A DNA stretch of 64,000 bases from Candidatus Thiodiazotropha sp. (GTDB taxonomy: Bacteria > Pseudomonadota > Gammaproteobacteria > Chromatiales > Chromatiaceae), in assembly GCA_040507035.1 (NCBI GenBank), contig JBEVVR010000034.1, positions 28,589 to 92,588 of the forward strand. Reading direction: 5' to 3'. Of this stretch, positions 21,660 through 62,594 are shown piece by piece (within the stretch, counting starts at the first letter, position 1; every line of letters starts with the position of its first letter). Under the pieces are notes generated by a model. The model was not told where the DNA came from and made no database searches. It saw only the letters and a program-made list of their open reading frames with translations. Made by a program: the position numbers and the translations under genes.

Positions 21660-22232
21660 CTACTGACGAATCCCTTCGATGGACAACTCCAGCTGAACTG
21701 TCTTCGAGGCAGGTCCCAGATCGAAGTTAATGCCGAAGTCGGCCAGTGCGATCTCGGTGGTGCCAAAGAAACCACGGCGATAGCCGCCCCAGGGATCGTT
21801 GCCATGACCTATATGCTCGACCGCGATAACTACCGGCTTGGTGACACCGCGTAGGGTGAGATCACCTTTGAGTTCGGCCTTGCCGTCACCCTTCTCGGTA
21901 AAGGATGTGGAGACGAATGAGGCCTTGGGGTATTTGTCCACATAGAGGAAATCCTCGTTCCGCAGATGCTTGTCCCGCTCACCATGGTTGCTGTCGATAC
22001 TGGCCGGATTGATATCCACCGATATCTTCGCGGCCTGGGGATTCTTCTCGTCATAGCTGAAGCTGCCGCTGAACTCGTTGAAACGGCCCATCAGCCAACT
22101 GTAGCCCAGGTGCTTGATACGGAATTGAATGAAGGCGTGGGCGCCCTTGGTGTCGATTGCGTACTCTTCAGCTTTAAGGGGTGAGGTAAAAATAAAGCTG
22201 GCTGCTATCAATGGTATTAAAAGGTTTTTCAT
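21660..22232 (-). CDS. yceI: YceI family polyisoprenoid-binding periplasmic protein
   Basis: 'YAIDTKGAHAFIQFRIKHLGYSWLMGRFNEFSG', 'RDKHLR' and 'DPWGGYRRGF'; start after AGGAG. Confidence 0.9.
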   Translation of the reverse strand: MKNLLIPLIAASFIFTSPLKAEEYAIDTKGAHAFIQFRIKHLGYSWLMGRFNEFSGSFSYDEKNPQAAKISVDINPASIDSNHGERDKHLRNEDFLYVDKYPKASFVSTSFTEKGDGKAELKGDLTLRGVTKPVVIAVEHIGHGNDPWGGYRRGFFGTTEIALADFGINFDLGPASKTVQLELSIEGIRQ

Positions 22233-22283
22233 CAGTGTTCTCCTATTTAGAAAATATCTCACAAACTATCAGTTAAGGAGCAG

Positions 22284-22405
22284 CTGGCGGTCATCTTTCG
22301 CAGCAGCGGCAGGGATGCCGCGGGAGCCCCGTCAGCATACCCCAAGGGCACTTCCTTCGGGCGCATGGATGTGCTGTTGGGGCGGCGTAGAAAGATGACT
22401 GCCAG
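22284..22405 (+). repeat. Structured repeat element, copy 1 (self-complementary ends, internal GGA hairpins)
   Basis: Ends ctggcggtcatctttc/gaaagatgactgccag pair at 15 of 16 positions; interior homologous to the reverse complement of 22575-22670. Confidence 0.8.
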
Positions 22406-22574
22406 CCGCGTGAAACTTGGGTATTACTCCTCTACATTTTGCTTAATTAGATCACTCTGTCGCTTCTCGTGAATTGGGATTTATAACTGAGATACTAAAT
22501 CTGTTCTGTGCAGCTGATGACAGTCATTTAATCTGGGCTATTTTCATCCGAGTTCTTAAGCAGGCTTTACGCGA

Positions 22575-22670
22575 CTGATGACGGTCTTTCTCCGCCGCCC
22601 CAACAGCACGTCCTTGTGCTGACGGGGCTACCGCGGCATCCCTGCCGCTGCTACGAAAGACCGTCACCAG
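22575..22670 (-). repeat. Structured repeat element, copy 2 (inverted relative to copy 1)
   Basis: Ends ctgatgacggtctttc/gaaagaccgtcaccag pair at 15 of 16 positions; shares cagcggcagggatgccgcgg.agccccgtcagca and gtgctgttggggcggcg with copy 1. Confidence 0.8.
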
Positions 22671-22813
22671 TCGCTCGTTTAACTGCTAGATGGTAGTTTC
22701 CAAACTATTGCTCAACCTGTTTCCCTGCCACGAAACACTGTCATCAGACGTTCGTTTAACTGCAAGGTTGCTAGTTTTCAAACCATTGCTCAAGCAGCTT
22801 CTCTTCCCCGCAC
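22663..22813. repeat. Diverged ~77-bp tandem duplication containing the 3' end of the flavodoxin gene
   Basis: Units 22663-22735 and 22740-22813; on the minus strand they encode RGRETG* and RGREAA*. Confidence 0.7.
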
Positions 22814-23389
22814 CAATTGTTGCGTAATGGTGGCAACCCTAGCCCCATAGGCCTCGGCGGTCGCGATATCCCCCGTGGAGGGTGCATCACCCGGATCCAC
22901 CTGAAAGCTCGCCGCCATCGGCCCCGAATAGGACCCGATCCGGTTCATCACCTCAGGTCCAGGGCCTTCGATGCGATTCATCGAATCCGGATCGCTGGCC
23001 GCCGGGTGCATCCCCAGGCTGACGTAGATCATCCCCTGCTGCATGGCGTTGATCATCAGGCCCACCAGGGTATTGAGCTTGTCCCCCGAGAAGGAGCTGG
23101 AGTTGGTGAAGGCTCCCGCCACCTTGTCCTTCCATGCCTGGGTGAACCATTTGGCCGCCGCGGTCTCGAGGAACTTCTTCATCTCTGCCGACATGCTGCC
23201 CATGTAGGTGGGGGTGCCGAAGATGATTCCGTCCGCGTCGTCGAGGCTGTCCAGGTCGCTCCCGGCCTCTTCAGTGGTAAGCAACACGGCTTCAACACCG
23301 CTGACCGAGGCAGCGCCTCTGTGCACGGCCTCCGCCTGTAACTTGGTGTGGCCGAAGCCGCTGTGATAGACGATTGCAACTTTTGTCAT
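22790..23389 (-). CDS. Flavodoxin-like NAD(P)H:quinone oxidoreductase (WrbA family)
   Basis: 'YHSGFGHT', 'FGTPTYMGS' and 'KDKVAGAFTNS..FSGDKLNTL'. Confidence 0.85.
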   Translation of the reverse strand: MTKVAIVYHSGFGHTKLQAEAVHRGAASVSGVEAVLLTTEEAGSDLDSLDDADGIIFGTPTYMGSMSAEMKKFLETAAAKWFTQAWKDKVAGAFTNSSSFSGDKLNTLVGLMINAMQQGMIYVSLGMHPAASDPDSMNRIEGPGPEVMNRIGSYSGPMAASFQVDPGDAPSTGDIATAEAYGARVATITQQLVRGREAA

Positions 23390-33346: not shown

Positions 33347-34173
33347 TCAGATCCACCCGCAAGCAGGCAGGTCTATCCATCATCTCCTTGATGATCGCCA
33401 GTGCAATCGGGGTTTTCCTGATTGGTGGTGCCGGAAAAATCTACCTCGACAGTAAAAATGCCTTCATTGCAAGATCGACCATCGCCGCAGCCGCTGAGAG
33501 CTCCCGGTTCGCCGTGCAGGATCTACGCCGAAACCTGGTCATGGCAGGCAGGGGCGTCACTGAACAGAATGACAATCCCTCTACTTATCTAGATCCAGAC
33601 AACAATATGAGGACCTTTCCCGCCGTTGATCCCGATAATACCGTCGCCGCAAGCTCCACCGGTATTATCGACATGGATAGCAACGACTCCAGTGCCGTTG
33701 CCGTTCGCTATGCGGAAGGACCGGCGCCTTGCGGTCAAGACGGCACCATTGACACTACGCACACCGTTCGATTCTACCGCAACGGCGATGCCGAGCTTAT
33801 CTGTCAATCCATAGAAACCGTAGCTGGCGCACTCAACACGGGCGGAGCCTTCGAGCGTGCCATGGCATCGGGTGTCGTCCTCATGCGTGCCCTCTACGGT
33901 GTGGATACGGATGCGGATGGCATTGCCAACCAATATCTGACCGCCACCGAAGTGGACAATGCCGATCGTTGGGTAAACGTGGTAACCATCAGGATTGGCA
34001 TAGTCACCAGCTCCGATACCGAAGAGCTTCCCTACACCTATCGCCCGGCAGCCGCAGAAGAGATGCGGGTGCTTGGTATGGAGCATATCGCAGCCGACAC
34101 ATCCCATTCGTTCAAGACCGCGAGCACCACCATCGCGTTGAGAAATCTAAACACCACAGTCCAGAGACAATGA
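33343..34173 (+). CDS. pilW: Minor pilin PilW, copy 1
   Basis: G|LSIISLMIA; 'RALYGVDTDADG...Y'; 'VVTIRIGIV'; terminal 'IALRN'. Confidence 0.82.
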   Translation: MIRSTRKQAGLSIISLMIASAIGVFLIGGAGKIYLDSKNAFIARSTIAAAAESSRFAVQDLRRNLVMAGRGVTEQNDNPSTYLDPDNNMRTFPAVDPDNTVAASSTGIIDMDSNDSSAVAVRYAEGPAPCGQDGTIDTTHTVRFYRNGDAELICQSIETVAGALNTGGAFERAMASGVVLMRALYGVDTDADGIANQYLTATEVDNADRWVNVVTIRIGIVTSSDTEELPYTYRPAAAEEMRVLGMEHIAADTSHSFKTASTTIALRNLNTTVQRQ

Positions 34174-34661
34174 TCATGACCATCAACCGCAAACAACTCG
34201 ATGTATGCAACCGACGCCATCAACAGCAGGGCGCGGCCCTGGTGATCGGCCTGATACTGCTCTCGGTGATCACCCTGTTAAGTGTGAGCGCCATGCGCAG
34301 CAGCAACCTCGAGACAAAGATCGCCGTCAATCATCAATTCAAGGAGTTGAGTTTCCAGGCGGCGGAAAATGCTTTGGCACAGCTGACCGGACCCGATCCT
34401 GAAATACTGGTACCGAACGCCATCTGTGCGGAACAACCGAATCCTGGTTACTACACATCGTCGGGAGTCACTCACCAACCCGATTTGAGCGCGGATGTCA
34501 CCATGCAGATGAGAGAGATCAGCCCACCTGGAAAGTACAAATTCTCCGGTTTTGGTCTGAATGTGGTCACCGTGTTGTACAAGGCCGACGCTCTGGGAAC
34601 GGTTGCAGACAACAACACCCAGACGACCAACCGCATGGAAGTCGCGCTGATCAGGAATTGA
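34170..34661 (+). CDS. pilX: Minor pilin PilX, copy 1
   Basis: G|AALVIGLILL; 'SFQAAENAL'; ATGA overlap with the pilW stop. Confidence 0.82.
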   Translation: MIMTINRKQLDVCNRRHQQQGAALVIGLILLSVITLLSVSAMRSSNLETKIAVNHQFKELSFQAAENALAQLTGPDPEILVPNAICAEQPNPGYYTSSGVTHQPDLSADVTMQMREISPPGKYKFSGFGLNVVTVLYKADALGTVADNNTQTTNRMEVALIRN

Positions 34662-34674
34662 GGAGTTATAGAGT

Positions 34675-37600
34675 ATGAGTACTATGAATAGGTTATTTCC
34701 AAAACAGCTCGTCATTTCCCTGGGGACCAGCTTCGCCATCTCCATGATGAGTTCCGTAGCAATCGCGGATGATGTAGAGATCTATCTGCAGGAACCGCCG
34801 GATCCGGTGCCGCCGAACGTACTCTTCATTCTCGACGAATCGGGCAGTATGAACAGTTCGCCAAGCCCCAGCCGCAGGGACCGCCTGGAAGATGCGATGC
34901 AGTCACTGTTCAACGACCCGGATATGGGAAATGTCAATGCAGCGATGCTAGGTTATACCACCAACTCGGGCAATAACGGCCCGCTGCTGCTGCGCGCGCT
35001 CAACGGCAATTTCAGCCTCATAGAGGACAATCTAACCAGCTTCACCAACGCCGCAGACAATCTACAAACCCGCAGTTACACACCGACAGTCAAGGCGATG
35101 GAAGCCGCTGTCGACTGGTTTCGGCGTGACCAGACCTTCATCGATGCCAACAACTTCTCCACCACATCACCCATCGCGGGTATCCCTGAAGATAACTGGT
35201 GCCGGCCCAATCATATGGTGCTGCTTACCGACGGTCGGCCCAACTCGAATTCGCCCACCAGTGGCCAAGCATATGGTTTGACCTCTTATCAAGGCACCAA
35301 CTGCGCCAGAGATGCGGCCTCCAATTGGCAAAACGGCCGCTGCGCCAGAGAGATCGCCGCTTGGGCCTTCAATACCGACCTGGAAACAGGCCCAGGCTGG
35401 TCAGATACCCAGAACATCGTCACCCATACCATCGGATTCGATACCGACAACGATGCAGCTATTCGGAACTTTATGGTCAGCATCGCAGCAGCGGGGGGTG
35501 GTAATTACTACCCGGCATCCAGTGTCTCCGACCTGGTCAGTGCCTTCACCTCGATCGTCACCGAGGCGATGGAATCGATCCCCTACGCCTACACCGCCCC
35601 GGTAATCCCCTTCAATCAGGACAATGCGGCGGTGAGCGGCAATCGCATCTTTGTGCCGATGCTGGTGCCGGCTGCGGAGACCTTCTGGAAAGGCAACCTG
35701 AAGAGCTACACCATCTCCACATCAACCAGTGCTGATGGGGTTGCGATAACCCTGACCGATGCCGACGGTAATGATATCGTCAACGATAACTACGAGTTCG
35801 TCTCATCCAGAGACCACTGGAACTCCTCGGGTCAGGATAATGCCAATCCACTGGTGGGTGGCGCAGCTCAAATGATGACAGCGTCGGGCAATCGCAACCT
35901 GTTCACCAATGTCAACCCCGGCGCATCACTCTCGGACGCCTCAAATCGTGTCGATTCTAACAACGCCCTGATCACTCATGCCATGCTCGGCTTACCCAAT
36001 GGCGACGACGCGGGGAAGGAGATCCTGCTCAACTGGATCAGTTGGGACCCTGCTGGGGCTATTAGCAGCACGCCGCCAAGTTTTGCCGTGCCCTGCGCGT
36101 CTGAAAATGGGACTTGCGATCTACCCGCGGATGTTTCCGCCACTGTTTGGTACGGCGCGAACGATAGCTGGTTTTACCAAACAGATGTCACTGGCAGCAT
36201 TGGTTGTAATAACGGTACCTTTGGCGACCCCTTGTGGGGCACAGTCAAAGCCTGTTTCTATCTGGCAACTGCCGAATCCCATGAGGGCGAAATGGGGGCA
36301 CCCCTGCATACCCAACCCGCTGTCATGGATTACGGCTCCGGTGATGTCATTTTTCTGCCTACCAGTGAAGGTGTGCTAGAAGCGTTCGATGCAGAGACCG
36401 GAGAAGAGCTCTGGGCATTCATGCCATCCGATCTGTTGGGCGATATCCAGACCATCTATAACAACAACCCAGCATCAATCCCCTACTACGGATTGGATGG
36501 GCCCTTGACCGTCTATGAGACGGGTGGCAATAAAATGGCGATAGTGGGTATGCGCAGAGGTGGCAGGAACTACTACCTGCTCGATATCACCGATCGTGAG
36601 AATCCCGAATTCGTGACCACCATCAATGCGGCCGCAGGCTTTAGCCGACTTGGCCAAACCTGGTCCAAGCCACTCTTCGTCAGCATGGAGATCAACGGTG
36701 GCAGCGCTCAGGATGTATTGATCTTCGGTGGTGGTTATGATCCGGATCAGGATAGCGCCACCACCTCGCGCAGTAACGACAACGAAGGCAATGCCATCTA
36801 TATCGTCGATGCAGAGGATGGTTCACGGCTAAGAACCATCTCCTCCGATGGCGGTGCAGACCTGACCATCAGCGATATGAACAACGGCATTGCCGGTGAC
36901 TTGCTGCCGGTGGATATCAACGCCAACGGTGTCACCGATCGTCTCTATGCCGCGGATGTCGGCGGCAGGATTATTCGCGTCGACATTCCCGACAGTGAGT
37001 TTGGCGACACCAGCCTGGATGGCGGTATCATCGCTGACATCTATGAACCCGGTGAATTCAGACGTTTCTTCAACACCCCGGAGGTTGGCTACTACAACCT
37101 GGGTGGTGTTCAATATCTGGCAATACTCCTCGGCAGCGGAAATCGGACCAATCCCCTCGATATCTCTGTCACCGACAGATTCTACATGATCAAGGATCCG
37201 AACGTCTGGGCCAAGCCCACCACCTATGTCACGGTACTCCAGAATCAACTCTATGATGCCAGTGATAATACCGTGCAGGATGGCAGCGGGAGCGATCAAA
37301 TTACAGCCGAGGCATCCCTCAGGTCGATGAACGGCTGGTACATAGACTTCGGCCTCTCGGAGAAATCCTTCTCCAAGGCCGTGCTCTACGACTATGCGGT
37401 TCTGTTTACCACCTTCAGTGCGGAGCGGTCCCCTGATATCGCAGCCTGCGAGGCCCGGGGAGCCGTGGGTGTTGGACGCTTCTACGCGATCAATATGAAG
37501 GATGCCTCCGCCATATTCGACGGTTTGGGTGGCAATGAGGGTACCCTCGACATCAATGATCGCTCTAAGGTGTTGAGCATGATGGGTATGCCCCCCTCCC

Positions 37601-39183: not shown

Positions 39184-40035
39184 ATGTCTCGATCACAACA
39201 CCATCAGCATGGGTTCTCATTGATATCACTGATGATTGCCAGCGCCATCGGTCTGTTTATCGTCGGCGGTATCGGTAAGATCTATATCGATGGCAAGAAC
39301 GCCTTCAATGCAAGGGCTGCGATCGCCGCGGCGACCGAGTCCTACCGTTTCACCTTCCAGGAGATGCGTCGCAACCTGATCATGGCAGGCAGGGGAATTG
39401 CAACATCCGACGACAGCGCTTCAGCCTACACCGATGCCCAGAGTGATCAGGGCCTGCGCACCTTTCCTGCCGTAGATCGCACTCCCGATGGCATCGTCAG
39501 CGGCACCCAACAATCAGACGATGGCTGGAGTCCGGCACCGCAGGAGTCGAGTATTGTCGCGATACGTTATGCATCTGGCCCTACACCATGCGGTGCGGAC
39601 AATCTAGATATGAGTGCCGGCACGGTAACGGTCAGATTCATCGTCAATGAAACAGGCGACCTTAACTGCCAGGTCTTTCAAAACAATGCACTATTTGACT
39701 CACAACCCATTGCTGCTGGTGTTGCCCAGATGCGTGCCCTCTATGGTGTCGACACCGATGCAGAGCCCGATGGGGTGGCGAACCGATATCTGACCGCCGC
39801 AGAAGTCACATCGCTGAACTGGATGAACGTGGTCTCGATCAGAATAGGCCTGGTGGTCAATTCCGGAACCGGTTATGAGCTGCCAGGCGCCTATCGTCCG
39901 GAAACACCGGAACAGTTGGATCTGCTTGGCGCAACCTTCACTGCACCCGACACCGACTATATCTACAGATCAGCGACCACCACTATCTCATTACGCAACC
40001 TGCACCACATGGATCGTCAATTTGCCGAGGAGTGA
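39184..40035 (+). CDS. pilW: Minor pilin PilW, copy 2
   Basis: G|FSLISLMIASAIG; paralogous to 33343-34173; start ATG 39184. Confidence 0.82.
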   Translation: MSRSQHHQHGFSLISLMIASAIGLFIVGGIGKIYIDGKNAFNARAAIAAATESYRFTFQEMRRNLIMAGRGIATSDDSASAYTDAQSDQGLRTFPAVDRTPDGIVSGTQQSDDGWSPAPQESSIVAIRYASGPTPCGADNLDMSAGTVTVRFIVNETGDLNCQVFQNNALFDSQPIAAGVAQMRALYGVDTDAEPDGVANRYLTAAEVTSLNWMNVVSIRIGLVVNSGTGYELPGAYRPETPEQLDLLGATFTAPDTDYIYRSATTTISLRNLHHMDRQFAEE

Positions 40036-40044
40036 GAAGTCATC

Positions 40045-40557
40045 ATGCCGCTAAGCAGACTTATAAAAACAGATAGCAAACAAACCGGCGCCGCCCTGGT
40101 TATCAGTCTCGTGATTCTCACAATCGTTACCCTGCTAAGTGTTACAGCCATGCGCAACACCAATCTGGACACCAAGATCGCGGTCAACCATCAATTCAAG
40201 GAGATCAGCTTTCGCGCCGCCGAGAATGCACTGGCTATCGTCACCGGTCCGGAGTTGAGTGTCCTGGACAACCTGGACATACCCAATGTAGAGGGTGAAA
40301 TCACCCGCAGCGATCCATTCTTCACCACCCATGATGAGCTAGGAAATCCTCTCGAACCGGCTTTTTCCGATCAGCTTCCGATGCGCGCGAGTCTTACCAT
40401 GGAGTATCAGGGGGAGAGACAGGGACTCTTTTTTTCCGGACACCAGCTGGACAACACAACCCACCTGTTTCTTGTGGATGCTGTCGGTACCGTGGCTGAA
40501 AGCGCCACCCACACACAAAACCGAATGCAGGTCGGATTGATACGACAACAGCATTAA
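40045..40557 (+). CDS. pilX: Minor pilin PilX, copy 2
   Basis: G|AALVISLVIL; 'TKIAVNHQFKE.SF.AAENAL' shared with copy 1. Confidence 0.82.
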   Translation: MPLSRLIKTDSKQTGAALVISLVILTIVTLLSVTAMRNTNLDTKIAVNHQFKEISFRAAENALAIVTGPELSVLDNLDIPNVEGEITRSDPFFTTHDELGNPLEPAFSDQLPMRASLTMEYQGERQGLFFSGHQLDNTTHLFLVDAVGTVAESATHTQNRMQVGLIRQQH

Positions 40558-40574
40558 GAAATGGATCCATCCCT

Positions 40575-43400
40575 ATGAGTCACCCTAGAACATTGAATGC
40601 ACATCAACCAATATCGGCGGTATTCGGTCTGTTAATTCTCATCACCTTCTCGGCTGGCCTCATGGCTGACGATATCGAGGTCTATCTGCAACCGCCACCT
40701 GATCAGGTACCCCCCAACATCCTGTTTCTCCTCGATGAATCGGGAAGTATGGACGGCGAGGTTGTGCGAGGCATCACGCGCCGGGACGCGCTGGTCAATG
40801 CATTGAACAGAATCCTCAATGCCGGCACACTGGACAATGTCAATGCCGCACTGCTTGGCTATAGTACGCTAACGGATACCGGTGAATCCGTACGCCTGGT
40901 AGCCCATACTGGTGATTTCACCCTAGTAGGCGATGAGAGAGCAAGCTTCAGATCGGCTATCGATCAGTTAGAGACGCTACACTACACCCCGACCACCGAT
41001 GCCTTGGCTGCCGCTGTCGATTGGTTCCATCCTGATCGGATCCCGAGTCAAATTCAACCCAGCGGTTTGCAGTCACCATTGACCGGCGATCCCGAAATAC
41101 TCAAATGTGCGCCAAACCGAATCGTCTTGCTTTCCGACGGTGCTCCCAATACCAGTACCAGAACCGTATATGAAGGCATTCCCTGTGCAGAGGTATCTCT
41201 TTTCGATAGTGCCGGTCGTAACGAGGGTGCGCGTTGCTCCAATGAGATCAGCGCTTGGGCCTATAATACCGATTTGGCAACCGGTGAGGGTTGGGATGGG
41301 ACTCAGAATATCCTCACCTACACCCTCTCTTTCGGCACCACGCCCGGATCTGATACCCAGCGGTACATGAATAGGGTAGCCCGTTCGGGTGGCGGCGAGT
41401 CATGGATCGTCGCCAATGAAGATGAGATCGCCGAGGCCTTCAGCTACATCATCAATGAGGCACAGAACTCAATCCGCTACGTGATGAACGCACCCACCAT
41501 TCCCTTCAATCCAGACAATGCCGCGGTCAGTGAGGACGTTATCTTTGTCCCTCTCTTTTACCCAGATGCCAGAAGATTTTGGCATGGCAATCTGAAGAAA
41601 TATAACGTCAATGTCACCGACGACGAAATTGAACTCCGGGCACGTGGCGGGCAGCGGGTACTCAATGACGATCATACTTTTGCCAGTACGATTGACCTCT
41701 TCTGTGATCACAGAAGCTGCGAGCCCGATGAAGGCGACCCCCTGGTCGGTGGCGCCGCCAGCAATATGACCGGGTTGAGAAACCTCTATACAAACCTGGA
41801 TCACGGGCATCCTCTCAACCATCAGACAAACCGGGTTCACCGGGATACGGCCAACATCACCAATGAATTGCTCGATGTCAGCAGTGAGGAAGAGCGTATC
41901 CAGCTACTCAATTGGATCACCCGGGACCCCGCCTATATCGCCACAGAAGAGCAGCCTTCCCTCGACGGGGTGATGGGCGCTCCTATCCATCCCCAGCCCG
42001 TGGTTGTCGACTATGACGGCCAAGGGCGCACCGTCTACATACCCACCAGCGAGGGTGTGCTGGAGGCCATAGATGCAGAAACCGGTGAGGAGCTCTGGGC
42101 CTTCATGCCGCAAGACCTGTTGCGAAATATCCGCCAGCTTAGGAACAATGAACCCTCGGTGACGCCCTACTACGGCCTCGACGGCCCGCTGACCGTCTAT
42201 GAGACCGATGGCAGAAAGATGGCCATAGTCGGCATGCGGCGGGGAGGCAGGAAATACCATCTCCTGGACATCAGCGATCGGCGGCAGCCTGTCTATGTCA
42301 GCGAAATATCAGCTGACGCCGCACCAACGGAGTTCTCCAACCTGGGACAAACCTGGTCCAAACCCCTATTCGCAACCATGTGGATCAACAATGCGGAACG
42401 CGAGGTGCTGATCTTCGGCGGCGGTTACGATCCCGACCAGGACAATGGCAATGGTGCCGACGACGAAGGCAATGCAATCTATGTGGTCGATGCAGCGGAC
42501 GGGTCGCTGCTGATCTCTGTATCCAACAGCGGCGCATCACTCAATATCAACGACATGGAAAACGCCATACCCAGCAACCTCGCCACCGTGGATATCAACG
42601 GTAACGGTATCGTGGATCGCATCTATGCCGCCGATGTAGGTGGCAGAATCATCCGCGCCGATTTCGAGGATCGGGACAGGGCGGACAATGCTCTATCCGG
42701 TGGTATCATCGCCGACATCAACCAGGGAGCCAATGCCCACCGCAAGTTCTTCACCACCCCCCAGGTTGGTTACTATTCAAAGGGCGCGCATCAGTTCCTG
42801 GCGTTATTGATCGGCACCGGTGATCATGCCGATCCTCTCGAGACCCATATCACCGACCGCTTCTACATGATCAAAGACGGCAACATCTGGGATCATGCCA
42901 TCAGTCAGCAACCCGCCGTTGACAACGACTTCATCAATGCCAGCACCACCGCCCTGGTCAACGGTGAGGTATTGACCCACTATCGGGGTTGGTATATCAA
43001 CTTCGAAGGTTCGGAGAAGTCCTTCTCCAGGGCGATTCTCTATGACTATTCGATCTTCTTCACTACCTACAGCGCTGAGAGGGTAGTCCCCGACGAACCC
43101 TGCGAAGTCGAGTATACAAGAGGGACTGCCAGGATCTACGGCCTCGACCTCATCAGCGCCAATGCCGCCGTCAACTGGAACGGCATTACAGAGCATGAAC
43201 TCACCATCAGTGATCGCTCATCCCAGCTACGACTCCAGGGTATCCCCCCCTCACCGATGCTGTTCTTTCCCGGCGGTGTCGATGACAATGGGGATGCCGT
43301 GATTGGCAGAAGAATCTTCCTCTTTGCCGATCTACAGAAGAAACACGAATGGAGCGACCGCTTCCGTCCCATCTACTGGGAGGAGGTGATCGAGGATTAG
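40575..43400 (+). CDS. pilY1: Type IV pilus tip adhesin PilY1, copy 2
   Basis: 'LLDESGSM', 'WHGNLKKY', 'LGQTWSKP', 'DINGNGIVD'; ends 'PIYWEEV' like copy 1. Confidence 0.88.
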   Translation: MSHPRTLNAHQPISAVFGLLILITFSAGLMADDIEVYLQPPPDQVPPNILFLLDESGSMDGEVVRGITRRDALVNALNRILNAGTLDNVNAALLGYSTLTDTGESVRLVAHTGDFTLVGDERASFRSAIDQLETLHYTPTTDALAAAVDWFHPDRIPSQIQPSGLQSPLTGDPEILKCAPNRIVLLSDGAPNTSTRTVYEGIPCAEVSLFDSAGRNEGARCSNEISAWAYNTDLATGEGWDGTQNILTYTLSFGTTPGSDTQRYMNRVARSGGGESWIVANEDEIAEAFSYIINEAQNSIRYVMNAPTIPFNPDNAAVSEDVIFVPLFYPDARRFWHGNLKKYNVNVTDDEIELRARGGQRVLNDDHTFASTIDLFCDHRSCEPDEGDPLVGGAASNMTGLRNLYTNLDHGHPLNHQTNRVHRDTANITNELLDVSSEEERIQLLNWITRDPAYIATEEQPSLDGVMGAPIHPQPVVVDYDGQGRTVYIPTSEGVLEAIDAETGEELWAFMPQDLLRNIRQLRNNEPSVTPYYGLDGPLTVYETDGRKMAIVGMRRGGRKYHLLDISDRRQPVYVSEISADAAPTEFSNLGQTWSKPLFATMWINNAEREVLIFGGGYDPDQDNGNGADDEGNAIYVVDAADGSLLISVSNSGASLNINDMENAIPSNLATVDINGNGIVDRIYAADVGGRIIRADFEDRDRADNALSGGIIADINQGANAHRKFFTTPQVGYYSKGAHQFLALLIGTGDHADPLETHITDRFYMIKDGNIWDHAISQQPAVDNDFINASTTALVNGEVLTHYRGWYINFEGSEKSFSRAILYDYSIFFTTYSAERVVPDEPCEVEYTRGTARIYGLDLISANAAVNWNGITEHELTISDRSSQLRLQGIPPSPMLFFPGGVDDNGDAVIGRRIFLFADLQKKHEWSDRFRPIYWEEVIED

Positions 43401-50621: not shown

Positions 50622-51080
50622 TCATTCGTCGAAGACTTTAGAAGGCCGGGTAACAACATACGTTGCCGCTACCCCAAGACCCAGGATTGCTCCCAGCGTC
50701 ATAAAATCGTTCACTGGCGCCAGCCAAATCAGTGCGGCAGAAAAAGACATACCGAGCAAGGCTGCAAGTTTTCCTGGGCGTGAAACAACACCGTGTTCGA
50801 TGTAATCCTGAATAGCTTTTCCGTAACATTCATGATTCACCAGTTTTTGGTAGAGATCTGGCGAACTCCTTGCGTAGCAGATGGCTGCACCGATCCAGAA
50901 TACGGTGGTTGGCATTAAGGGCAATAGGATCCCGATAAATCCCAGACCGGTCAGCGTATGCCCACCCCACAAACACATCAGGTGGTTCGGTGAATCTGAC
51001 TTTGCCTCTTGAAGCGAGGCACTACCCCTGGTGATGTTCAAACTCGTCGCTAGATCACTGCTGTAGTTCGATTGGTTCAT
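50622..51080 (-). CDS. YbaN/DUF454 inner membrane protein
   Basis: 'LGFIGILLPLMPTTVF...AA.CYARSS' motif. Confidence 0.8.
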   Translation of the reverse strand: MNQSNYSSDLATSLNITRGSASLQEAKSDSPNHLMCLWGGHTLTGLGFIGILLPLMPTTVFWIGAAICYARSSPDLYQKLVNHECYGKAIQDYIEHGVVSRPGKLAALLGMSFSAALIWLAPVNDFMTLGAILGLGVAATYVVTRPSKVFDE

Positions 51081-53985: not shown

Positions 53986-55926
53986 ATGGAGGATGGCTTG
54001 ATGACAAATCTTTCTGTGTTTGGAACTAAGGCTGAACAAATACCAACCGCATTTGTACAGCGTTACGTGAGATTTTGTCTCCTCTTTGTCTGGCTTGTCC
54101 CTGCACTCATCCTGTTACCGGGCTGTAAACCCGCGTGTGACGACGGCGTTTGCGAGCTAGGCGAGACCTGTGAAACCTGTCCCCAGGATTGCGGTCAATG
54201 TGAACAGGACCCGGTTTGTGACGACGGCGTCTGCGATTTGGATGAAACCTGCGAGACCTGTCCCCAGGACTGCGGCCAATGTGAACAGCACCCGGTCTGT
54301 GACGACGGCGTCTGCGAATCAGGTGAAAGCTGTGATAGCTGTCCACAGGATTGTGGCGTCTGTCCGTCACTGTCGGTAAGCATCACTGCGCCTGTTTCCG
54401 GCGATGTTGTCTCCGGTCCGGTTACCGTCACGGCTGACGCCACTGATACAACCGGGGTGGCTGGTGTACAGTTTCAGCTCGATGGCATCTATCTCGCCGC
54501 GGAACAGCGAAACTTCCCGTACGAAATTGTGTGGGACACGACCACAATAGGCAACGGCGATCACACGCTGTCCGCCATCGCACGAAATGTCGTGGGAGAT
54601 CTCGAACTTTCCAATGAGGTTCAGGTCACCGTAGAGAATACAACACCTTCGGACGGCTTCCCCCCGGACGATCTCGGTCCTGCTCGTGGTGGTCTGGTCT
54701 CATCTGTTGCAGACGGCATGGGAGTGGGCATCGGCGTCAATCCCGGTGATGTGAGCACCTATGCCGATGAGATCCAGAACGCCGGATTCACCTGGGTGCG
54801 CTCGCGTCTGTTGTGGAAGGCCATCGAAACCACACCCGGCGTCTACAACTGGACCGTGGCACCGAACTACGATCGCATCGCCAATGAATTCAATAACCGA
54901 GGGATTGGTGTGCTGTTCATGGTTACCTACCACAACGATACAGCCTACTCCGGCCTGTCGGGTAATCCGCCGTTCAACGCCACCGGTCGGCGGAACTTCG
55001 GTAACTTCCTCAAGGCGGCGGCAGCCCACTTCAAAGGCAGGAAGATAATGTTCGAGATCGGTAACGAACCGAACATAAAACAGTTCTGGCCCGTGGACGC
55101 CAACAACAATGGATCGGTCACCATGACAGAGGTGCGCGACGCCGCGCGAGCATACGCCGAGTTGGCCAAGGTAGCCATCCCCATGGCGAAATCAGCGGAT
55201 GGGGATCCGGATGCGTTCATCATCGGCCCAAGTCTTGCCAATCGCGGCGGACCCTATATCGGTGGTGAGGTCGGCGCCCATGTTTACATACAAGAGCTTA
55301 AAGCCGCAGGCGCTCTCGAGCCATTATTCGATCGCATCAGCATTCATCTCTATACGGCAGAAGGTAGCTTTCCCCAGCAGAATATGCCGGATGGACAGGC
55401 CCCCGAGGATGCCCATATCGAACTGTTTCGAGATCTCATCGCCGACCCCAACGCCAACATGATCAACACCGAGCATGGTTGGAAATCTGATGGAAGCGCC
55501 CTTCAGGATCAGCTGCAAGCCAGCTTCAACATTCGGGACTTCATCTATGGACTATCCCAGGGGGTTCGCATGCGTTTCTGGTTCCTCTGGAGTCACTCGT
55601 CCGGCATGACGGATTGGTTCATCGCCGGCACGCCCGCGGCGGACGCCACCCGTATTCTCGATCGTGAGTTGGGCGATTTTCACATGCTGCGCCGCGTACC
55701 CAGCGCCAATCCGGAGCACTATGTCTTCGAATTCGCGGATACGGCAGGCAACCGACGCCTCTGCGCCTGGAAGGCAAATACCTCGACCCCGGATGTGTTC
55801 ACCTATCCTTCCACGGCGGACGCAACAGTGGTCAACCTCTACGGCAACGAAGAGAGTGTGTCTTCCAATGGCACGTCGATCTCGTTGAACTTGGAGATCC
55901 ACCCTGTATATGTACGATTGCCATAA
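53986..55926 (+). CDS. Lipoprotein: three Cys-rich repeats + Ig-like domain + clan-A glycoside hydrolase (GH5/GH39-like) domain
   Basis: Lipobox LPG-C; 3x CDDGVC..GE.C..CPQDCG.C; Ig-like 'VSITAPVSGDVVSG.V.V.A.A.D..GVAGVQF'; acid/base 'EIGNEPN' and nucleophile 'INTEHGW'. Start uncertain. Confidence 0.75.
   Translation: MEDGLMTNLSVFGTKAEQIPTAFVQRYVRFCLLFVWLVPALILLPGCKPACDDGVCELGETCETCPQDCGQCEQDPVCDDGVCDLDETCETCPQDCGQCEQHPVCDDGVCESGESCDSCPQDCGVCPSLSVSITAPVSGDVVSGPVTVTADATDTTGVAGVQFQLDGIYLAAEQRNFPYEIVWDTTTIGNGDHTLSAIARNVVGDLELSNEVQVTVENTTPSDGFPPDDLGPARGGLVSSVADGMGVGIGVNPGDVSTYADEIQNAGFTWVRSRLLWKAIETTPGVYNWTVAPNYDRIANEFNNRGIGVLFMVTYHNDTAYSGLSGNPPFNATGRRNFGNFLKAAAAHFKGRKIMFEIGNEPNIKQFWPVDANNNGSVTMTEVRDAARAYAELAKVAIPMAKSADGDPDAFIIGPSLANRGGPYIGGEVGAHVYIQELKAAGALEPLFDRISIHLYTAEGSFPQQNMPDGQAPEDAHIELFRDLIADPNANMINTEHGWKSDGSALQDQLQASFNIRDFIYGLSQGVRMRFWFLWSHSSGMTDWFIAGTPAADATRILDRELGDFHMLRRVPSANPEHYVFEFADTAGNRRLCAWKANTSTPDVFTYPSTADATVVNLYGNEESVSSNGTSISLNLEIHPVYVRLP
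54136..54366 (+). repeat. Three 81-bp coding repeats (27-aa Cys-rich units)
   Basis: Units start at 54136, 54217 and 54298. Confidence 0.9.
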
Positions 55927-58253: not shown

Positions 58254-61200
58254 ATGCATCTAAAGCAAAGGCGAATATTTTCCACGCAATCAGTACTGGT
58301 CTCATTACTTGTTCTTTTCACTGTACTGATCCATTCCACACAAGCACAGGCCACGTCCAGACTACTCAATAGCTGGCAGGCGGCTTATCCCAACTCATTA
58401 AGTGACGATAATCTTGCCGATCCCTGCACATTATGTCACAGCGACAATAGTTATAGTGAACTCAATGGCTATGGTTGGGACATGGATAGAATAAGTAATG
58501 ACTATTCTGCATTGGAATCTCTGAATTCAGACAATGATCCCAACAACACAAGTAACCTTGATGAGATCAATGGCAATACCCAACCAGGTTGGACCGCAGG
58601 TGCAAACAATGTCATCAACGGTGGTTCGGTAACCAGTAACGCATCACCTGCCCAGATAATCGCCGGCTTGCATGATCCAGAAGTAATCAACCAAGCACCA
58701 GTAGCGGATATCGGTGGCCCCTACAGTGGCACTCAGAATATTGAGCTAAGCTTCGATGCATCGAACTCCACAGACATAGACGGCATCATCACCGACTATG
58801 CCTGGGACTTTGGGGATGGCAGCAGTGGTAATGGAGTACAGGTTTCACATATCTACACAGCAACAGGAAACTTCAATGTCACATTGATTGTAACTGACGA
58901 CCAGGGCAACAGTACCACAGCATCCACTTCGGTTATGATTGGTGCTGGCAATCTGCCTCCTGTTGCCTATGCCATGGGGCCATACACCAGTCAAGTGGGT
59001 GAAGCGGTTAGCTTCGACGGCAGCGGCACGACCGACGCAGACGGAACGATTGTCAGTTATGATTGGAATTTTGGTGATGGCAGCTTCGGAACAGGCGTCA
59101 GTCCTACCCATGCCTACTCAGCCAGCGGCACATACAACGTCACTCTGACAGTGACCGATGATAACAATGCGGTGGATTCCGATGTCACTTCGGTCAGTGT
59201 TGAACAGGCCAATCAGGCACCAACAGCAGATCCTCGTGGCCCCTATACAGGCACAGTCAATACCGCTGTTACCTTCGATGCATCCGCTTCCAGTGATGCG
59301 GATGGTCAAATAAGCAGCTATCAATGGGATTTTGGTGACGGTACTACCGGCACAGGAGTAAATCCGTCGCATACCTATGCAGTTGCAGATGTCTATAACA
59401 TCACCCTGCAAGTGACTGACAACAACGGTGCTAGCGCTACCGCCACCACCACCGCCACGATTGGTGATGTGATCAAGGAGCCACCTACCGCCGTTGCCGG
59501 TGGACCATATACCGGCACTGTCAACCAAACTCTTGAATTAAGTGCCAGTGGCAGCACCGATCCTGACGGCCAAATCACCAGCTATACCTGGGACTTAGGT
59601 GATGGCAATTCAGCAAACGGTAGCAATGTCTCTCACACCTATAGTGATGCCGGGACTTTCAACATTACGCTTACTGTTACAGATAATGATGGCATCATGG
59701 ATACCGCCACAACCACGGCGGTTATCGGCTTGGGCAACCTATCGCCAACAGCTGACGCAAAGGGTCCCTATACAACGACCATTGGAACAAATGTCAATTT
59801 TGACGGCAGTGGCTCAGTAGATCCCGATGGCACTATTGTCGCGTATGACTGGGACTTTGGAGACAACTCAACAGGCACCGGGCCGAAACCATCCCATTCC
59901 TATAGTGCGGAAGGAACCTACAACGTAACACTTACCGTCATTGATGACAGTGGCGCCATGGACTCAGCAGCCACTACTGTAACTGTAACTTCCAATGAGG
60001 ACCCGGAGATTGTCGGTTCTGCGGAAATCACTAAGAAGTTTAACTGGGGCAGAGGTTTTCTGGGAATCGGCACCATCAACAATGATTCAAATAAGCCAAT
60101 TAACATGTGGGAGATCAGTTTCGGTGCGGATTTCGAAATATACCGTATCTGGGGAGCAAAGGTTCTTTCTCACACCGATGGCATCTATATCATTACCGCA
60201 AAAGGAGACAATCAATCCATTCTTCCTGGTGAGATGGTGAGATTCGCCTTTATTGCCGGGCCAGGGGATAGCCCGATTCCTGACGAAATAGCCTTGGTTG
60301 ACAGGGGTGAGTCAACACCGGGTAGCGGTAATCAGGAGGTCCAGACTGAAGTCACGATGGAGTCTGTCAATGAGTGGAGGAAGGGCTTTCAGGGCATGGG
60401 GTCTATACACAATACCGGTGATGAGCTGATAGATGGCTGGACCCTGAGTTTCGATGCTGACTTTGAGATTAAAAGGTTATGGAATGCCAGGATAGTTTCT
60501 CACTCAGAAAATAGGTATGTGTTGTCGGGAAAACGGCGGAGCAAAATAATAGAACCCGGTAAAGCTGTGACTTTTGGTTTCATTGCAACACCCAGCGGAT
60601 CCTTAATGCCCACTCATTTCTTGGTGAATGGGTCTGAGAGTAATGCAGGAGATGATTCCGATACTGGTGATAATTCAGATAGCGGGGATGACGCTGATAC
60701 CGGGGATGACGCCGATACCGGGGATGACGCTGATACCGGGGATGACGCTGATACCGGAGATGACGCTGATACCGGAGATGACGCTGATACCGGGGATGAC
60801 GCTGATACCGGGGATGGCAACGATACCGGGGATGGCGCTGATACCGGAGATGACGCTGATACCGGGGATGACGCTGATACCGGGGATGGCAACGATACCG
60901 GGGATGGCAACGATACCGGGGATGGTAACGATACCGGGGATGGCAACGATACCGGGGATGGCAACGATACCGGGGATGGCACCGATACCGGGGATGGCAC
61001 CGATACCGGGGATGGCACCGATACCGGGGATGGCACCGATACCGGAACCACTGTCGGCGGGCTCGATTGCTCAGGTGCGGTCTTTGGCTCCTCAGGAGCG
61101 CCGATTCGACGCCTGACTCACACCGAATACCAAAATAGTGTCGCCAGTCTGTTCCCAGGCGTGTCCCTGCCAAGCCTGAATCTACCTGTCGATCAACGCA

Positions 61201-62594
61201 TGAATGGATTTACCAATGCAGCTGAAGGTCAAGCACCGTCGGCATTAAGTGTCGATCAGTACGCTACTGCTGCGGAGTCCATTGCCGCAGCAGCAGTCCA
61301 GTCCCTGGGGAGTTGGGCGCCATGCAATGACAGCAATGATGCGGCATGCGCACGTCGAGCGCTAAGCGCTATCGCGCCACGTATCTACAGGCACCCCCTG
61401 TCGACTGAGGAGAACACTGCTATTGACACCTTGATGGAAGGTGCTCTGAATACGGCCACGCCACAGGAGGCCCTCGGCCTGGCACTCACCGGGCTGCTCG
61501 AATCACCAAGCTTTCTCTATCGTCCTGAGTTTGGTACCTCCAACGCCATAGGCAACGCTAGGGAGCTGGATGCCTATGAACTTGCTTCACGCCTATCCTA
61601 CTTCTTCTGGAGAGACATACCTGATGACGAACTGTTGGCGGCAGCAGCGGATGGCAGTCTGCTGACAGACAGTGTCCTTCGCGCCCAGGCAAATCGCTTA
61701 TTGAACGATTCCCGAGCCAGACCGGTGTTGACTGACTTCTTCGTTCAGTGGCTCGGCTTGTACAAGCTCGATACCATGTCCCTTGACGCCGCCGCATTTC
61801 CTGAATTTGACACTGCACTGCGCAGCGACCTGAAGGCATCAGCGGTGAGTTATGTTGAGCATGCCCTGTGGAACGCGGACTCCTGGTCTGTTCTTATGTC
61901 TGGCAGCTATGGTTATGTCAATAACCGCCTGGCGCCGATCTTCGGTGTGCCTGCCCCGAATAGTGACCAACTGGTTCAGCTGAATCTGAACATGAGCGAG
62001 CGGGCAGGTGTACTGACTCAACCCGGCACCCTGGCCTCAACATCCCACGATGCCCGTCACTCACCCATCTTGCGTGGCGTGCAGTTCCTCACCGGGATTG
62101 TCTGTGCTCCCCCGCCAGCACCTGCCGCAGGTGTCGGGATGCCTGACGAGGATCTTGTTGTCGATGAATCGCAGGTGTGCACCACTCGCGATGAAGTTGC
62201 GATGAAACACAGTGCCTCCGCTGGTTGCTCTGCCTGCCATGATGCAATCGATAGCGCCGGATTCAATTTCGAAAATTACGATGCACTGGGTCGTTACCGT
62301 ACCGTGGAAAACGGTTGTCAAGTGGATGCCACGGGCAGTTTCGCAGGCACCGACATTACCGGTGTGTTACAAAATGCCGTTGACCTGGCGTTACAGCTAC
62401 CCACGAGTCGAACGGTAAGCAGCTGCATGACAGAACACATGTTCCGTTTTGCACTTGGCCGTAACGATAAGAGTCAGGATGCTTGCGAAATCTCAAGTCT
62501 CAGTAACCAACTGACAACTACAGATAGCATGCAATCATTGGTGATCGAACTTGTGATGTCACCTTCTTTCCGCAGCCGTCCAAGCACCAACTAA
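58254..62594 (+). CDS. 1446-aa secreted multidomain protein: monoheme cytochrome c, 5x PKD, 2x CBM2-like, acidic repeat linker, DUF1587/1595/1592/1588/1585-type module with a second CxxCH
   Basis: Signal peptide; CTLCH; five 'P.A...GPY.......FD.S...D.DG.I..Y.W.FGDG' units; two Trp-patterned CBM2-like units; 'IRRLTHTEYQNSV', 'LDAYELASRLSYFFWRDIPD', 'SPILRG', 'CSACHDAIDSAGFNFENYDALGRYR'. Confidence 0.82.
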   Translation: MHLKQRRIFSTQSVLVSLLVLFTVLIHSTQAQATSRLLNSWQAAYPNSLSDDNLADPCTLCHSDNSYSELNGYGWDMDRISNDYSALESLNSDNDPNNTSNLDEINGNTQPGWTAGANNVINGGSVTSNASPAQIIAGLHDPEVINQAPVADIGGPYSGTQNIELSFDASNSTDIDGIITDYAWDFGDGSSGNGVQVSHIYTATGNFNVTLIVTDDQGNSTTASTSVMIGAGNLPPVAYAMGPYTSQVGEAVSFDGSGTTDADGTIVSYDWNFGDGSFGTGVSPTHAYSASGTYNVTLTVTDDNNAVDSDVTSVSVEQANQAPTADPRGPYTGTVNTAVTFDASASSDADGQISSYQWDFGDGTTGTGVNPSHTYAVADVYNITLQVTDNNGASATATTTATIGDVIKEPPTAVAGGPYTGTVNQTLELSASGSTDPDGQITSYTWDLGDGNSANGSNVSHTYSDAGTFNITLTVTDNDGIMDTATTTAVIGLGNLSPTADAKGPYTTTIGTNVNFDGSGSVDPDGTIVAYDWDFGDNSTGTGPKPSHSYSAEGTYNVTLTVIDDSGAMDSAATTVTVTSNEDPEIVGSAEITKKFNWGRGFLGIGTINNDSNKPINMWEISFGADFEIYRIWGAKVLSHTDGIYIITAKGDNQSILPGEMVRFAFIAGPGDSPIPDEIALVDRGESTPGSGNQEVQTEVTMESVNEWRKGFQGMGSIHNTGDELIDGWTLSFDADFEIKRLWNARIVSHSENRYVLSGKRRSKIIEPGKAVTFGFIATPSGSLMPTHFLVNGSESNAGDDSDTGDNSDSGDDADTGDDADTGDDADTGDDADTGDDADTGDDADTGDDADTGDGNDTGDGADTGDDADTGDDADTGDGNDTGDGNDTGDGNDTGDGNDTGDGNDTGDGTDTGDGTDTGDGTDTGDGTDTGTTVGGLDCSGAVFGSSGAPIRRLTHTEYQNSVASLFPGVSLPSLNLPVDQRMNGFTNAAEGQAPSALSVDQYATAAESIAAAAVQSLGSWAPCNDSNDAACARRALSAIAPRIYRHPLSTEENTAIDTLMEGALNTATPQEALGLALTGLLESPSFLYRPEFGTSNAIGNARELDAYELASRLSYFFWRDIPDDELLAAAADGSLLTDSVLRAQANRLLNDSRARPVLTDFFVQWLGLYKLDTMSLDAAAFPEFDTALRSDLKASAVSYVEHALWNADSWSVLMSGSYGYVNNRLAPIFGVPAPNSDQLVQLNLNMSERAGVLTQPGTLASTSHDARHSPILRGVQFLTGIVCAPPPAPAAGVGMPDEDLVVDESQVCTTRDEVAMKHSASAGCSACHDAIDSAGFNFENYDALGRYRTVENGCQVDATGSFAGTDITGVLQNAVDLALQLPTSRTVSSCMTEHMFRFALGRNDKSQDACEISSLSNQLTTTDSMQSLVIELVMSPSFRSRPSTN
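60645..61040 (+). repeat. In-frame 18-bp tandem repeat, 22 units (TGDDAD/TGDGND/TGDGTD)
   Basis: Counted directly: 20 regular units plus 2 degenerate leading units, 396 bp in total. Confidence 0.95.

Follow-up and report, generated by a model that had tools for sequence, protein, structure and literature searches.

The spacer between a WrbA/flavodoxin-like gene and yceI in Candidatus Thiodiazotropha, a genus of lucinid-clam gill symbionts, carries a convergent doublet of TwoAYGGAY elements. They belong to Rfam RF01731, a family already known for structured repeats that occur between genes in many copies, and we are nearly certain of this family identity. The doublet lies in a stretch of 64,000 nt, hereafter the window, and was compared with related loci, which are identified by L numbers. 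As the best explanation overall we tentatively favour a doublet that acts as a CsrA-binding and CsrA-titrating RNA. The hypothesis of the initial annotation, a dispersed repeat family serving as embedded CsrA-binding modules or sponges, reproduces a published one, and both of its halves are in print: CsrA binding by TwoAYGGAY was already proposed in 2015 (Gardner and Eldai, PMC4333381), and multivalent Csr/Rsm sponges with a mobile-element-like expansion, often as doublets, were proposed in 2026 (Li et al., bioRxiv 10.64898/2026.09.22.753630).

Two convergent elements and their remnants upstream of yceI

The spacer spans 22233-22789. Its two flanking genes are read from the minus strand and belong to a gene row (pirin, cytochrome b561, flavodoxin-like gene and yceI) that is also present in relatives. 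The gene upstream of the spacer (22790-23389, minus strand) encodes a WrbA/flavodoxin-like FMN reductase with the Pfam domains FMN_red and Flavodoxin. The yceI gene (21660-22232, minus strand, ATG at 22232; Pfam YceI, E 5e-43), a member of the polyisoprenoid-binding protein family, has the ribosome-binding site AGGAGA at 22239-22244, and its product is 91% identical to a Candidatus Thiodiazotropha YceI. No exact-protein match is on record for the window YceI, with either of two start choices, or for the WrbA-like protein. A coding role for the short ORFs over the repeats (e.g., 22524-22667) was rejected, because their conservation is merely at the nucleotide level and the substitutions compensate one another within pairs.

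Copy 1 (22278-22411, plus strand) is a long variant antisense to yceI, and copy 2 (22569-22676, minus strand) is the short canonical form, in sense orientation with both the wrbA-like gene and yceI; an AT-rich spacer of 157 nt (22412-22568) separates the two. With the ends of the basal stem taken as boundaries, copy 1 covers 22280-22409 (130 nt, AYGGAY strand plus) and copy 2 covers 22571-22674 (104 nt, AYGGAY strand minus). The initial annotation had placed the two elements correctly and recognized their inversion, and the lengths of 122 and 96 bp that it gave have to be replaced by these values. The inverted repeat consists of two arm pairs, 22275-22337/22617-22679 (63 nt, 84% identity) and 22361-22395/22585-22619 (35 nt, 89%), which are two of the three inverted repeats of at least 28 nt in the whole window, and one 21-mer of the core occurs exactly twice in the window where none is expected.

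In the predicted fold, a 20-bp basal stem with a 2-bp extension encloses two inner hairpins in a three-way junction. The basal stem of copy 1 pairs 22280-22299 with 22390-22409; its hairpin 1 (22306-22321) has the loop AGGGAT at 22311-22316, and its hairpin 2 (22326-22383) contains an insertion of 26 nt (22338-22363) followed by ATGGAT at 22365-22370. The basal stem of copy 2 pairs 22655-22674 with 22571-22590, hairpin 1 (22633-22648) has the loop AGGGAT at 22638-22643, and hairpin 2 (22597-22628) has the loop AAGGAC at 22610-22615; the two GGA sites of this short form are 28 nt apart. The folding energies are −78.2 kcal/mol for copy 1 (z = −5.3) and −74.6 kcal/mol for copy 2 (z = −9.3). The other strand likewise folds much better than shuffled sequences, with z = −6.5 in copy 1 and −9.4 in copy 2. 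The closing stems, described before as 16 bp long and different in sequence yet still paired, do differ at 7 of 20 positions of the 5′ arm while both copies remain paired, over 20 bp rather than 16. All of the loops quoted earlier were found, namely gcggc-AGGGAT-gccgc in both copies, agcac-AAGGAC-gtgct in copy 2 and ATGGAT in copy 1, but the hairpin gcgc-ATGGAT-gtgc and the tetraloop cc-TTCG-gg claimed for copy 1 are absent from its minimum-energy fold. There the 26-nt insertion partly pairs the second GGA, while the centroid structure leaves the region open, so that the display of this second motif in a loop is uncertain in the predicted fold.

Parts of further copies surround the doublet. 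A partial third copy (22716-22763, minus strand), seen in direct repeats and by alignment, comprises the 5′ flank motif GCAGTTAAAC, the 5′ arm of the basal stem and the start of hairpin 1, and it lies inside a tandem duplication of 77-78 nt that spans 22648-22815. A remnant resembling the 3′ arm of the basal stem, GACTGTCATCAGCTGC (22510-22527, minus strand), was seen among the inverted repeats and pairs with the arm of this partial copy. A perfect 10-bp inverted repeat was said to nest copy 2; it exists with a length of 11 nt (22514-22524/22737-22747), and it is not a separate feature but the stem arms of a decayed further copy. The description of copy 2 as lying on the mRNA strand just upstream of yceI holds for the strand and not for the distance, which is 339 nt from the ATG; the copy adjacent to yceI is copy 1, 48 nt from the ATG and antisense.

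Other repeats occur elsewhere in the window. An ORF of 1446 aa (58254-62594, plus strand) contains PKD-like repeats of ~261 nt (DGxIxxYxWDFGD) at 58779-59863 and, at 60553-61110, an extended run of tandem 18-nt units, and in two relatives (L013 and L014) a giant protein with PKD repeats is encoded close to the same gene row. An ORF of 646 aa (53986-55926, plus strand) carries three 81-nt tandem repeats (54136-54378) that encode the cysteine-rich unit CDDGVCExxETCxTCPQDCGxC. The segments 33860-37210 and 39707-42891 are paralogous (70-83% identity, 5.7-5.9 kb apart) and look as if one large gene, or a pair of genes, had been duplicated in tandem.

Assignment to the TwoAYGGAY family

Copy 2 matched the full RF01731 model at 22564-22681 on the minus strand with 45.6 bits (E 9e-07), above the gathering cut-off of 43 bits, and the AG and CGG junction nucleotides on either side of its hairpin 2 agree with the RF01731 consensus. 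A whole-window Rfam scan at gathering thresholds returned a tRNA alone and missed this match owing to its speed filters; the match emerged when a region of 651 nt was searched with laxer filters. Copies in relatives scored 47.3 (L006a), 42.4 (L007a) and 41.2 bits (L001b). Copy 1 gave no match to RF01731 in a search of 181 nt with E values up to 10, and the two relatives' copies that have the same 26-nt insertion were likewise undetected. Because copy 1 is homologous to copy 2, with 84-89% identity on both sides of the insertion, and scores 105.7 bits (copy 2, 123.7 bits) with a covariance model of our own, R1, built from nine copies, we regard it as the same element.

The first description of TwoAYGGAY, from human gut sequences, Gammaproteobacteria and Clostridiales, classed it as probably an RNA and as not cis-regulatory (Weinberg et al. 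2010, PMC2864571). The elements in the window share with the Rfam family a basal stem around two adjacent hairpins with AYGGAY-type loops and a multi-copy, intergenic occurrence in Gammaproteobacteria with no tie to 5′ UTRs. All four loops in the window read A-N-GGA-Y, but the second position is a pyrimidine in just one of them (AUGGAU) and a purine in the other three, as in AGGGAU and AAGGAC. The elements also differ from the Rfam family in that their basal stem is shorter than the model, with large deletions in the alignment, in the insertion that puts copy 1 and its two counterparts below detection, and in their host, which is an uncultured chemosynthetic symbiont.

Conserved structure and loops among relatives

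A scan of a genome collection with a pattern that leaves loop 1 free found six Candidatus Thiodiazotropha loci and one chance match, a Rokubacteria locus (L002) that was rejected because the pattern had matched within GC-rich sequence. Metagenome contigs scanned with the loop-free pattern of 21 bases gave no match. The R1 model found just the two copies in the window and further ones in the related loci, including tandem, truncated and chimeric copies. Independent loci are the yceI spacer, the trpG-trpD spacer, a site 3′ of a Rep/UvrD-type helicase gene, where the copy sits at a convergent gene pair, and a site 3′ of tag (DNA glycosylase); the orientation of the elements relative to flanking genes is mixed.

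Several of these copies are rearranged or divergent. Just 3′ of the tag-like gene in L007 (3690-3760, minus strand) lies a divergent member with the loops AGGGAT and ACGGAC and without a long basal stem; it was missed by the exact-pattern scan, so that copy numbers from pattern scans are underestimates. In the trpG-trpD spacer of the same locus (L007:470-1150, from a Ctena orbiculata symbiont), a unit of ~330 nt, composed of a TwoAYGGAY copy and a second small hairpin (cccacgctggagcgtggg), is tandemly duplicated, and its orthologue in L003 is single. At L004:7400-7492, a chimeric partial copy consists of 5′ halves from two distinct elements, fused head-to-head over hairpin 1 (GCAGCAGCGGC-AGGGAT-GCCGCTGCTAC), suggesting rearrangement at the palindrome.

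The structure is clearly supported by covariation. We collected ten full copies from at least five genomes, and the pair statistics were taken from an alignment of nine sequences, which is small and partly orthologous and thus supportive rather than a formal test: standard pairs fill 96.4% of the pair cells, both sides have changed in 11 of 40 pairs (eight in the basal stem, one in hairpin 1 and two in hairpin 2), and none of 500 shuffles equalled the observed pairing values. When the partners were slid by 1-3 columns, pairing fell to 32-58%. RNAalifold independently arrived at the same structure with hexaloops on both hairpins, and between the orthologous copies of L003 and L007a the basal stem has changed with compensation.

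Of the 20 loops in the ten full copies, 19 retain GGA, and the same 19 conform to A-N-GGA-Y, the exception being loop 1 of L003 (ATGTAC). In the A-N-GGA-Y hexaloop A1, G3, G4 and A5 are fixed, whereas every base occurs at position 2 and either pyrimidine at position 6. The arms of the basal stem are the least conserved part of the element, and the flanks outside it are not conserved between different loci. Either strand folds with energies of −67 to −81 kcal/mol, and the AYGGAY strand is the more stable in all ten copies, by a mean of ~6 kcal/mol. On this strand the pairs include 16 G.U against 8 A.C, four of the latter at the loop-closing position. The two asymmetries favour folding of the AYGGAY strand, most simply as RNA.

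Gain and loss at the yceI spacer

The yceI spacer of relatives appears in a range of states. The convergent doublet of the window is also present in L001 (Ca. T. endolucinida), L005, where the distal copy is truncated, and L006; a single antisense copy is present in L008 and in L010-L012; and the 5′ arm remnant is alone in L009. There is no element in L013 and L014, whose spacers are 34 nt long, or in L015-L018, whose spacers are unrelated. The same variety of states recurs among contigs from two public runs, with a single sense-oriented copy as one of them. It follows from these states that one subclade acquired the element, that an inverted duplicate then arose, and that partial losses occurred repeatedly. 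The junction in L008 shows that an L006-like doublet lost the sequence from one stem arm to another. Because the basal stem is palindromic, inverted copies share direct repeats too, which accounts for deletion products with a single copy in one or the other orientation. This series at one spacer, from two copies through one in either orientation and a remnant to none, shows the decay of a doublet by recombination between its own stem arms.

An IS1595-family transposase gene interrupts the first codons of yceI in L005 (6364-7302; OZ242974.1, Ca. Thiodiazotropha sp.), ~45 nt from the proximal TwoAYGGAY copy; in this locus the distal copy ends after hairpin 1.

Such a history looks like that of a selfish DNA-level repeat of the REP/REPIN or MITE kind, in which the folded strand and the AYGGAY loops would be the site of a mobilizing enzyme, the element would serve its own copying, and CsrA would be irrelevant. 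We consider this the foremost competing explanation, possible but unlikely. It would account for the doublet, single, 5′-arm-remnant and empty states of one spacer, the arm-to-arm deletion in L008, the truncated, chimeric and tandemly duplicated copies, and the mixed orientation and intergenic positions, and it fits the copy numbers in Pseudomonas, with medians of 11-23 per genome, up to 202, and large differences between strains (bioRxiv 10.64898/2026.09.22.753630). Against it, the stem arms are the least conserved part, the opposite of terminal repeats bound by a transposase, and no target-site duplication is visible at the element borders. There is no associated transposase in ~230 kb of neighbourhoods, the IS1595-family insertion in L005 being unrelated, and viral contigs contained no match. 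The same loci are kept across species with compensated changes, which argues for long-term constraint after insertion, and the excess of G.U over A.C favours one specific folded strand.

Given the varying copy number at one spacer, the truncated and chimeric copies and the mixed orientation, the contrast with inert MITEs drawn in the initial annotation is a tentative one. Like REP/REPIN, ERIC and MITE sequences, the elements are short, highly structured, multi-copy, intergenic and often within operons, are gained and lost between relatives and are prone to rearrangement at palindromes. Unlike them, they are conserved in the interior (the loops and inner stems) rather than at the termini, form a three-way junction rather than a simple hairpin, and fold better on one strand. 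The hallmarks of MITEs, conserved terminal inverted repeats and a target-site duplication, were not found, and the yceI spacers of the element-free relatives are too divergent to be aligned as empty sites or to define insertion borders or target duplications. GTAG, which leads the short palindromes of REP/REPIN, a type accompanied by a RAYT transposase in the genome, precedes both hairpins of copy 2 (CGTAGCAGC and GGTAGCCCC), and copy 1 has GCAG and GGAG instead.

In most groups of Pseudomonas, genomes have medians of 11-23 copies with an enrichment of doublets, of which 68% are divergent with a median spacing of 249 bp, and the loci have flanking repeats and structural extensions (bioRxiv 10.64898/2026.09.22.753630). 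P. fluorescens SBW25, a cultivable host, carries 48 copies. The locus described here is similar in its close doublet (gap of 161 nt, midpoints ~277 nt apart), in the other repeats that flank it, and in the variation of copy number and occupancy between relatives. It differs in that the doublet is convergent, as it also is in L001, L005 and L006, and in that the upstream array of GMTBT(T) 5-6-mers is absent (1 and 2 matches in the 200 nt preceding the two copies, against a mean of 1.27 in the window null); copy 2 and the partial copy are each preceded by a lone GCAGT at a distance of 10 nt. The Pseudomonas loci are described as having three extra hairpins and a 3′ pseudoknot, whereas here no conserved extras were seen outside the basal stem, and the architecture, with its long basal stem, is like the original Rfam form.

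Transcription and csrA

Members of the family are present in RNA libraries of a relative. In a gill-type metatranscriptome, a contig of 2156 nt (depth 222) runs from the upstream genes, past the wrbA-like gene, through a single element into yceI, and at least eight contigs from RNA libraries contain family cores with different outer stems. These contigs are Logan assemblies of two runs, carry no strand information and may include DNA carry-over, and hence show presence in the RNA library only; within this limit they are compatible with transcription. Three of the outcomes that the initial annotation had named as refuting its hypothesis, GGA loops that vary between copies, no covariation and no transcription, were thus not observed. 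A search of RNA runs with the repeat region itself matched no run. Consensus scans found no promoter or terminator of the elements' own beyond chance; the 157-nt spacer between them contained nothing resembling a terminator and a single weak promoter-like match, which shuffled sequences yield as well.

Transcripts that run through the element would also suit a role as orientation-independent mRNA punctuation, as for REP and ERIC, in which the stable basal hairpin would block exonucleases, direct RNase processing or attenuate read-through and the loops would be irrelevant. The contig that covers the wrbA-like gene, the element and yceI speaks for this role, as do the positions within operons (wrbA-like to yceI, trpG to trpD) and 3′ of the helicase gene at a convergent pair, and the folding energies of −67 to −81 kcal/mol on either strand. 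We think it rather improbable, since it explains neither the fixed A1, G3, G4 and A5 in both hexaloops, while positions 2 and 6 and the stems vary, nor the asymmetry between the strands, and many relatives have the same operon without the element.

The regulator itself is abundantly transcribed in these symbionts: csrA heads the transcript ranking of Ca. T. endolucinida in three hosts (PMC13137333, Table 1), and other clades also have it among their most strongly transcribed genes (PMC12172469). The window contains no csrA; a weak tblastn match at 50854-51009 was rejected as a chance match in an alternative frame of another gene. No antagonist RNA of the CsrB/Rsm type was found in the window or the related loci scanned against Rfam.

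A CsrA-binding RNA as the favoured reading

The SELEX consensus of CsrA is RUACARGGAUGU, with the GGA in a hairpin loop, and the two sites of a CsrA dual-site target can be spaced by 10-63 nt. Compared with this consensus, the hairpins ACAGGGAUGU (L007a) and CAGGGAUG (hairpin 1) are a close fit. Because the hairpins fit and csrA is top-transcribed, CsrA binding is the most likely activity of transcripts of the AYGGAY strand. The unit most likely acts as an RNA read from this strand, in which a basal stem of 20-22 bp would hold two hairpins that present A-N-GGA-Y, the high-affinity recognition form of CsrA/RsmE, and the pair of GGA sites, 28 nt apart, would be bridgeable by a CsrA dimer. Transcription of the AYGGAY strand would then result in CsrA being bound and titrated, while duplications, and deletions from one of its stem arms to another, would let the family spread and decay. 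The elements would probably bind CsrA in vitro; that titration of CsrA is the function for which they are selected is a more doubtful, though possible, proposal. Our data establish the family identity, the structure and its covariation, the conserved loops, the asymmetry of the strands, the gains and losses at this spacer and the occurrence in RNA libraries, while the transcribed strand, the binding of CsrA and any physiological effect are inferred.

Several observations run against the CsrA reading. The trpG-trpD copies (L003 and L007) and copy 1 of the window are antisense to their operons, and the host mRNA would show UCC loops. Each unit has two GGA sites against 5-22 in known sponge RNAs, and in the long variant, present at three loci (copy 1, L004 and L006b), the second GGA is partly paired in the predicted fold. 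The elements have no recognizable promoter or intrinsic terminator of their own, and their presence, absence and truncation at one spacer resemble the behaviour of a selfish repeat. The likeness to CsrB, CsrC and RsmX/Y/Z is accordingly partial: the GGA motifs lie in hairpin loops in a context near the CsrA consensus, but there is no Rfam match to these RNAs, and the elements are dispersed repeats with two sites per unit and no dedicated promoter or terminator rather than single-copy genes, with a binding that is predicted here.

A structured RNA whose AYGGAY loops meet a partner other than CsrA, either another RNA-binding protein or, by loop-loop pairing, UCC-bearing RNAs such as the antisense copy on the same transcript, would be in keeping with the conserved structure and loops and with a convergent doublet whose transcript would contain GGA loops as well as their UCC complements, the arms being 84-89% complementary, but we judge it improbable, as no candidate partner gene is linked in the neighbourhoods examined and the loops fit the CsrA consensus closely.

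Within the CsrA reading, direct control of yceI by embedded CsrA modules is unlikely, because ~360-390 nt separate the ribosome-binding site from the copy that displays GGA on the mRNA, and the copy next to yceI, being antisense, has UCC loops there. In P. putida KT2440, RIP-seq recovered "long palindromic" intergenic regions, located by copies or putative insertion sites of ISPpu8, with each of the three Rsm proteins (PMC7937890); these Rsm-bound regions may be TwoAYGGAY elements.

TwoAYGGAY has been known as a widespread RNA family since 2010, and the idea of CsrA binding has been in print since 2015. What is known of the family is unchanged by the present locus, which is a useful annotation and a convenient test substrate rather than a discovery. 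It adds members in an uncultured chemosynthetic symbiont with csrA among its top-expressed genes, and copy 2 provides a compact canonical unit of 108 nt suited to a binding assay. We regard it as a long shot that TwoAYGGAY units inside ordinary mRNAs are the CsrA antagonists of Thiodiazotropha, with arm-to-arm deletion flipping the display between GGA and inert UCC; if this were true, CsrA availability would be rewired strain by strain.
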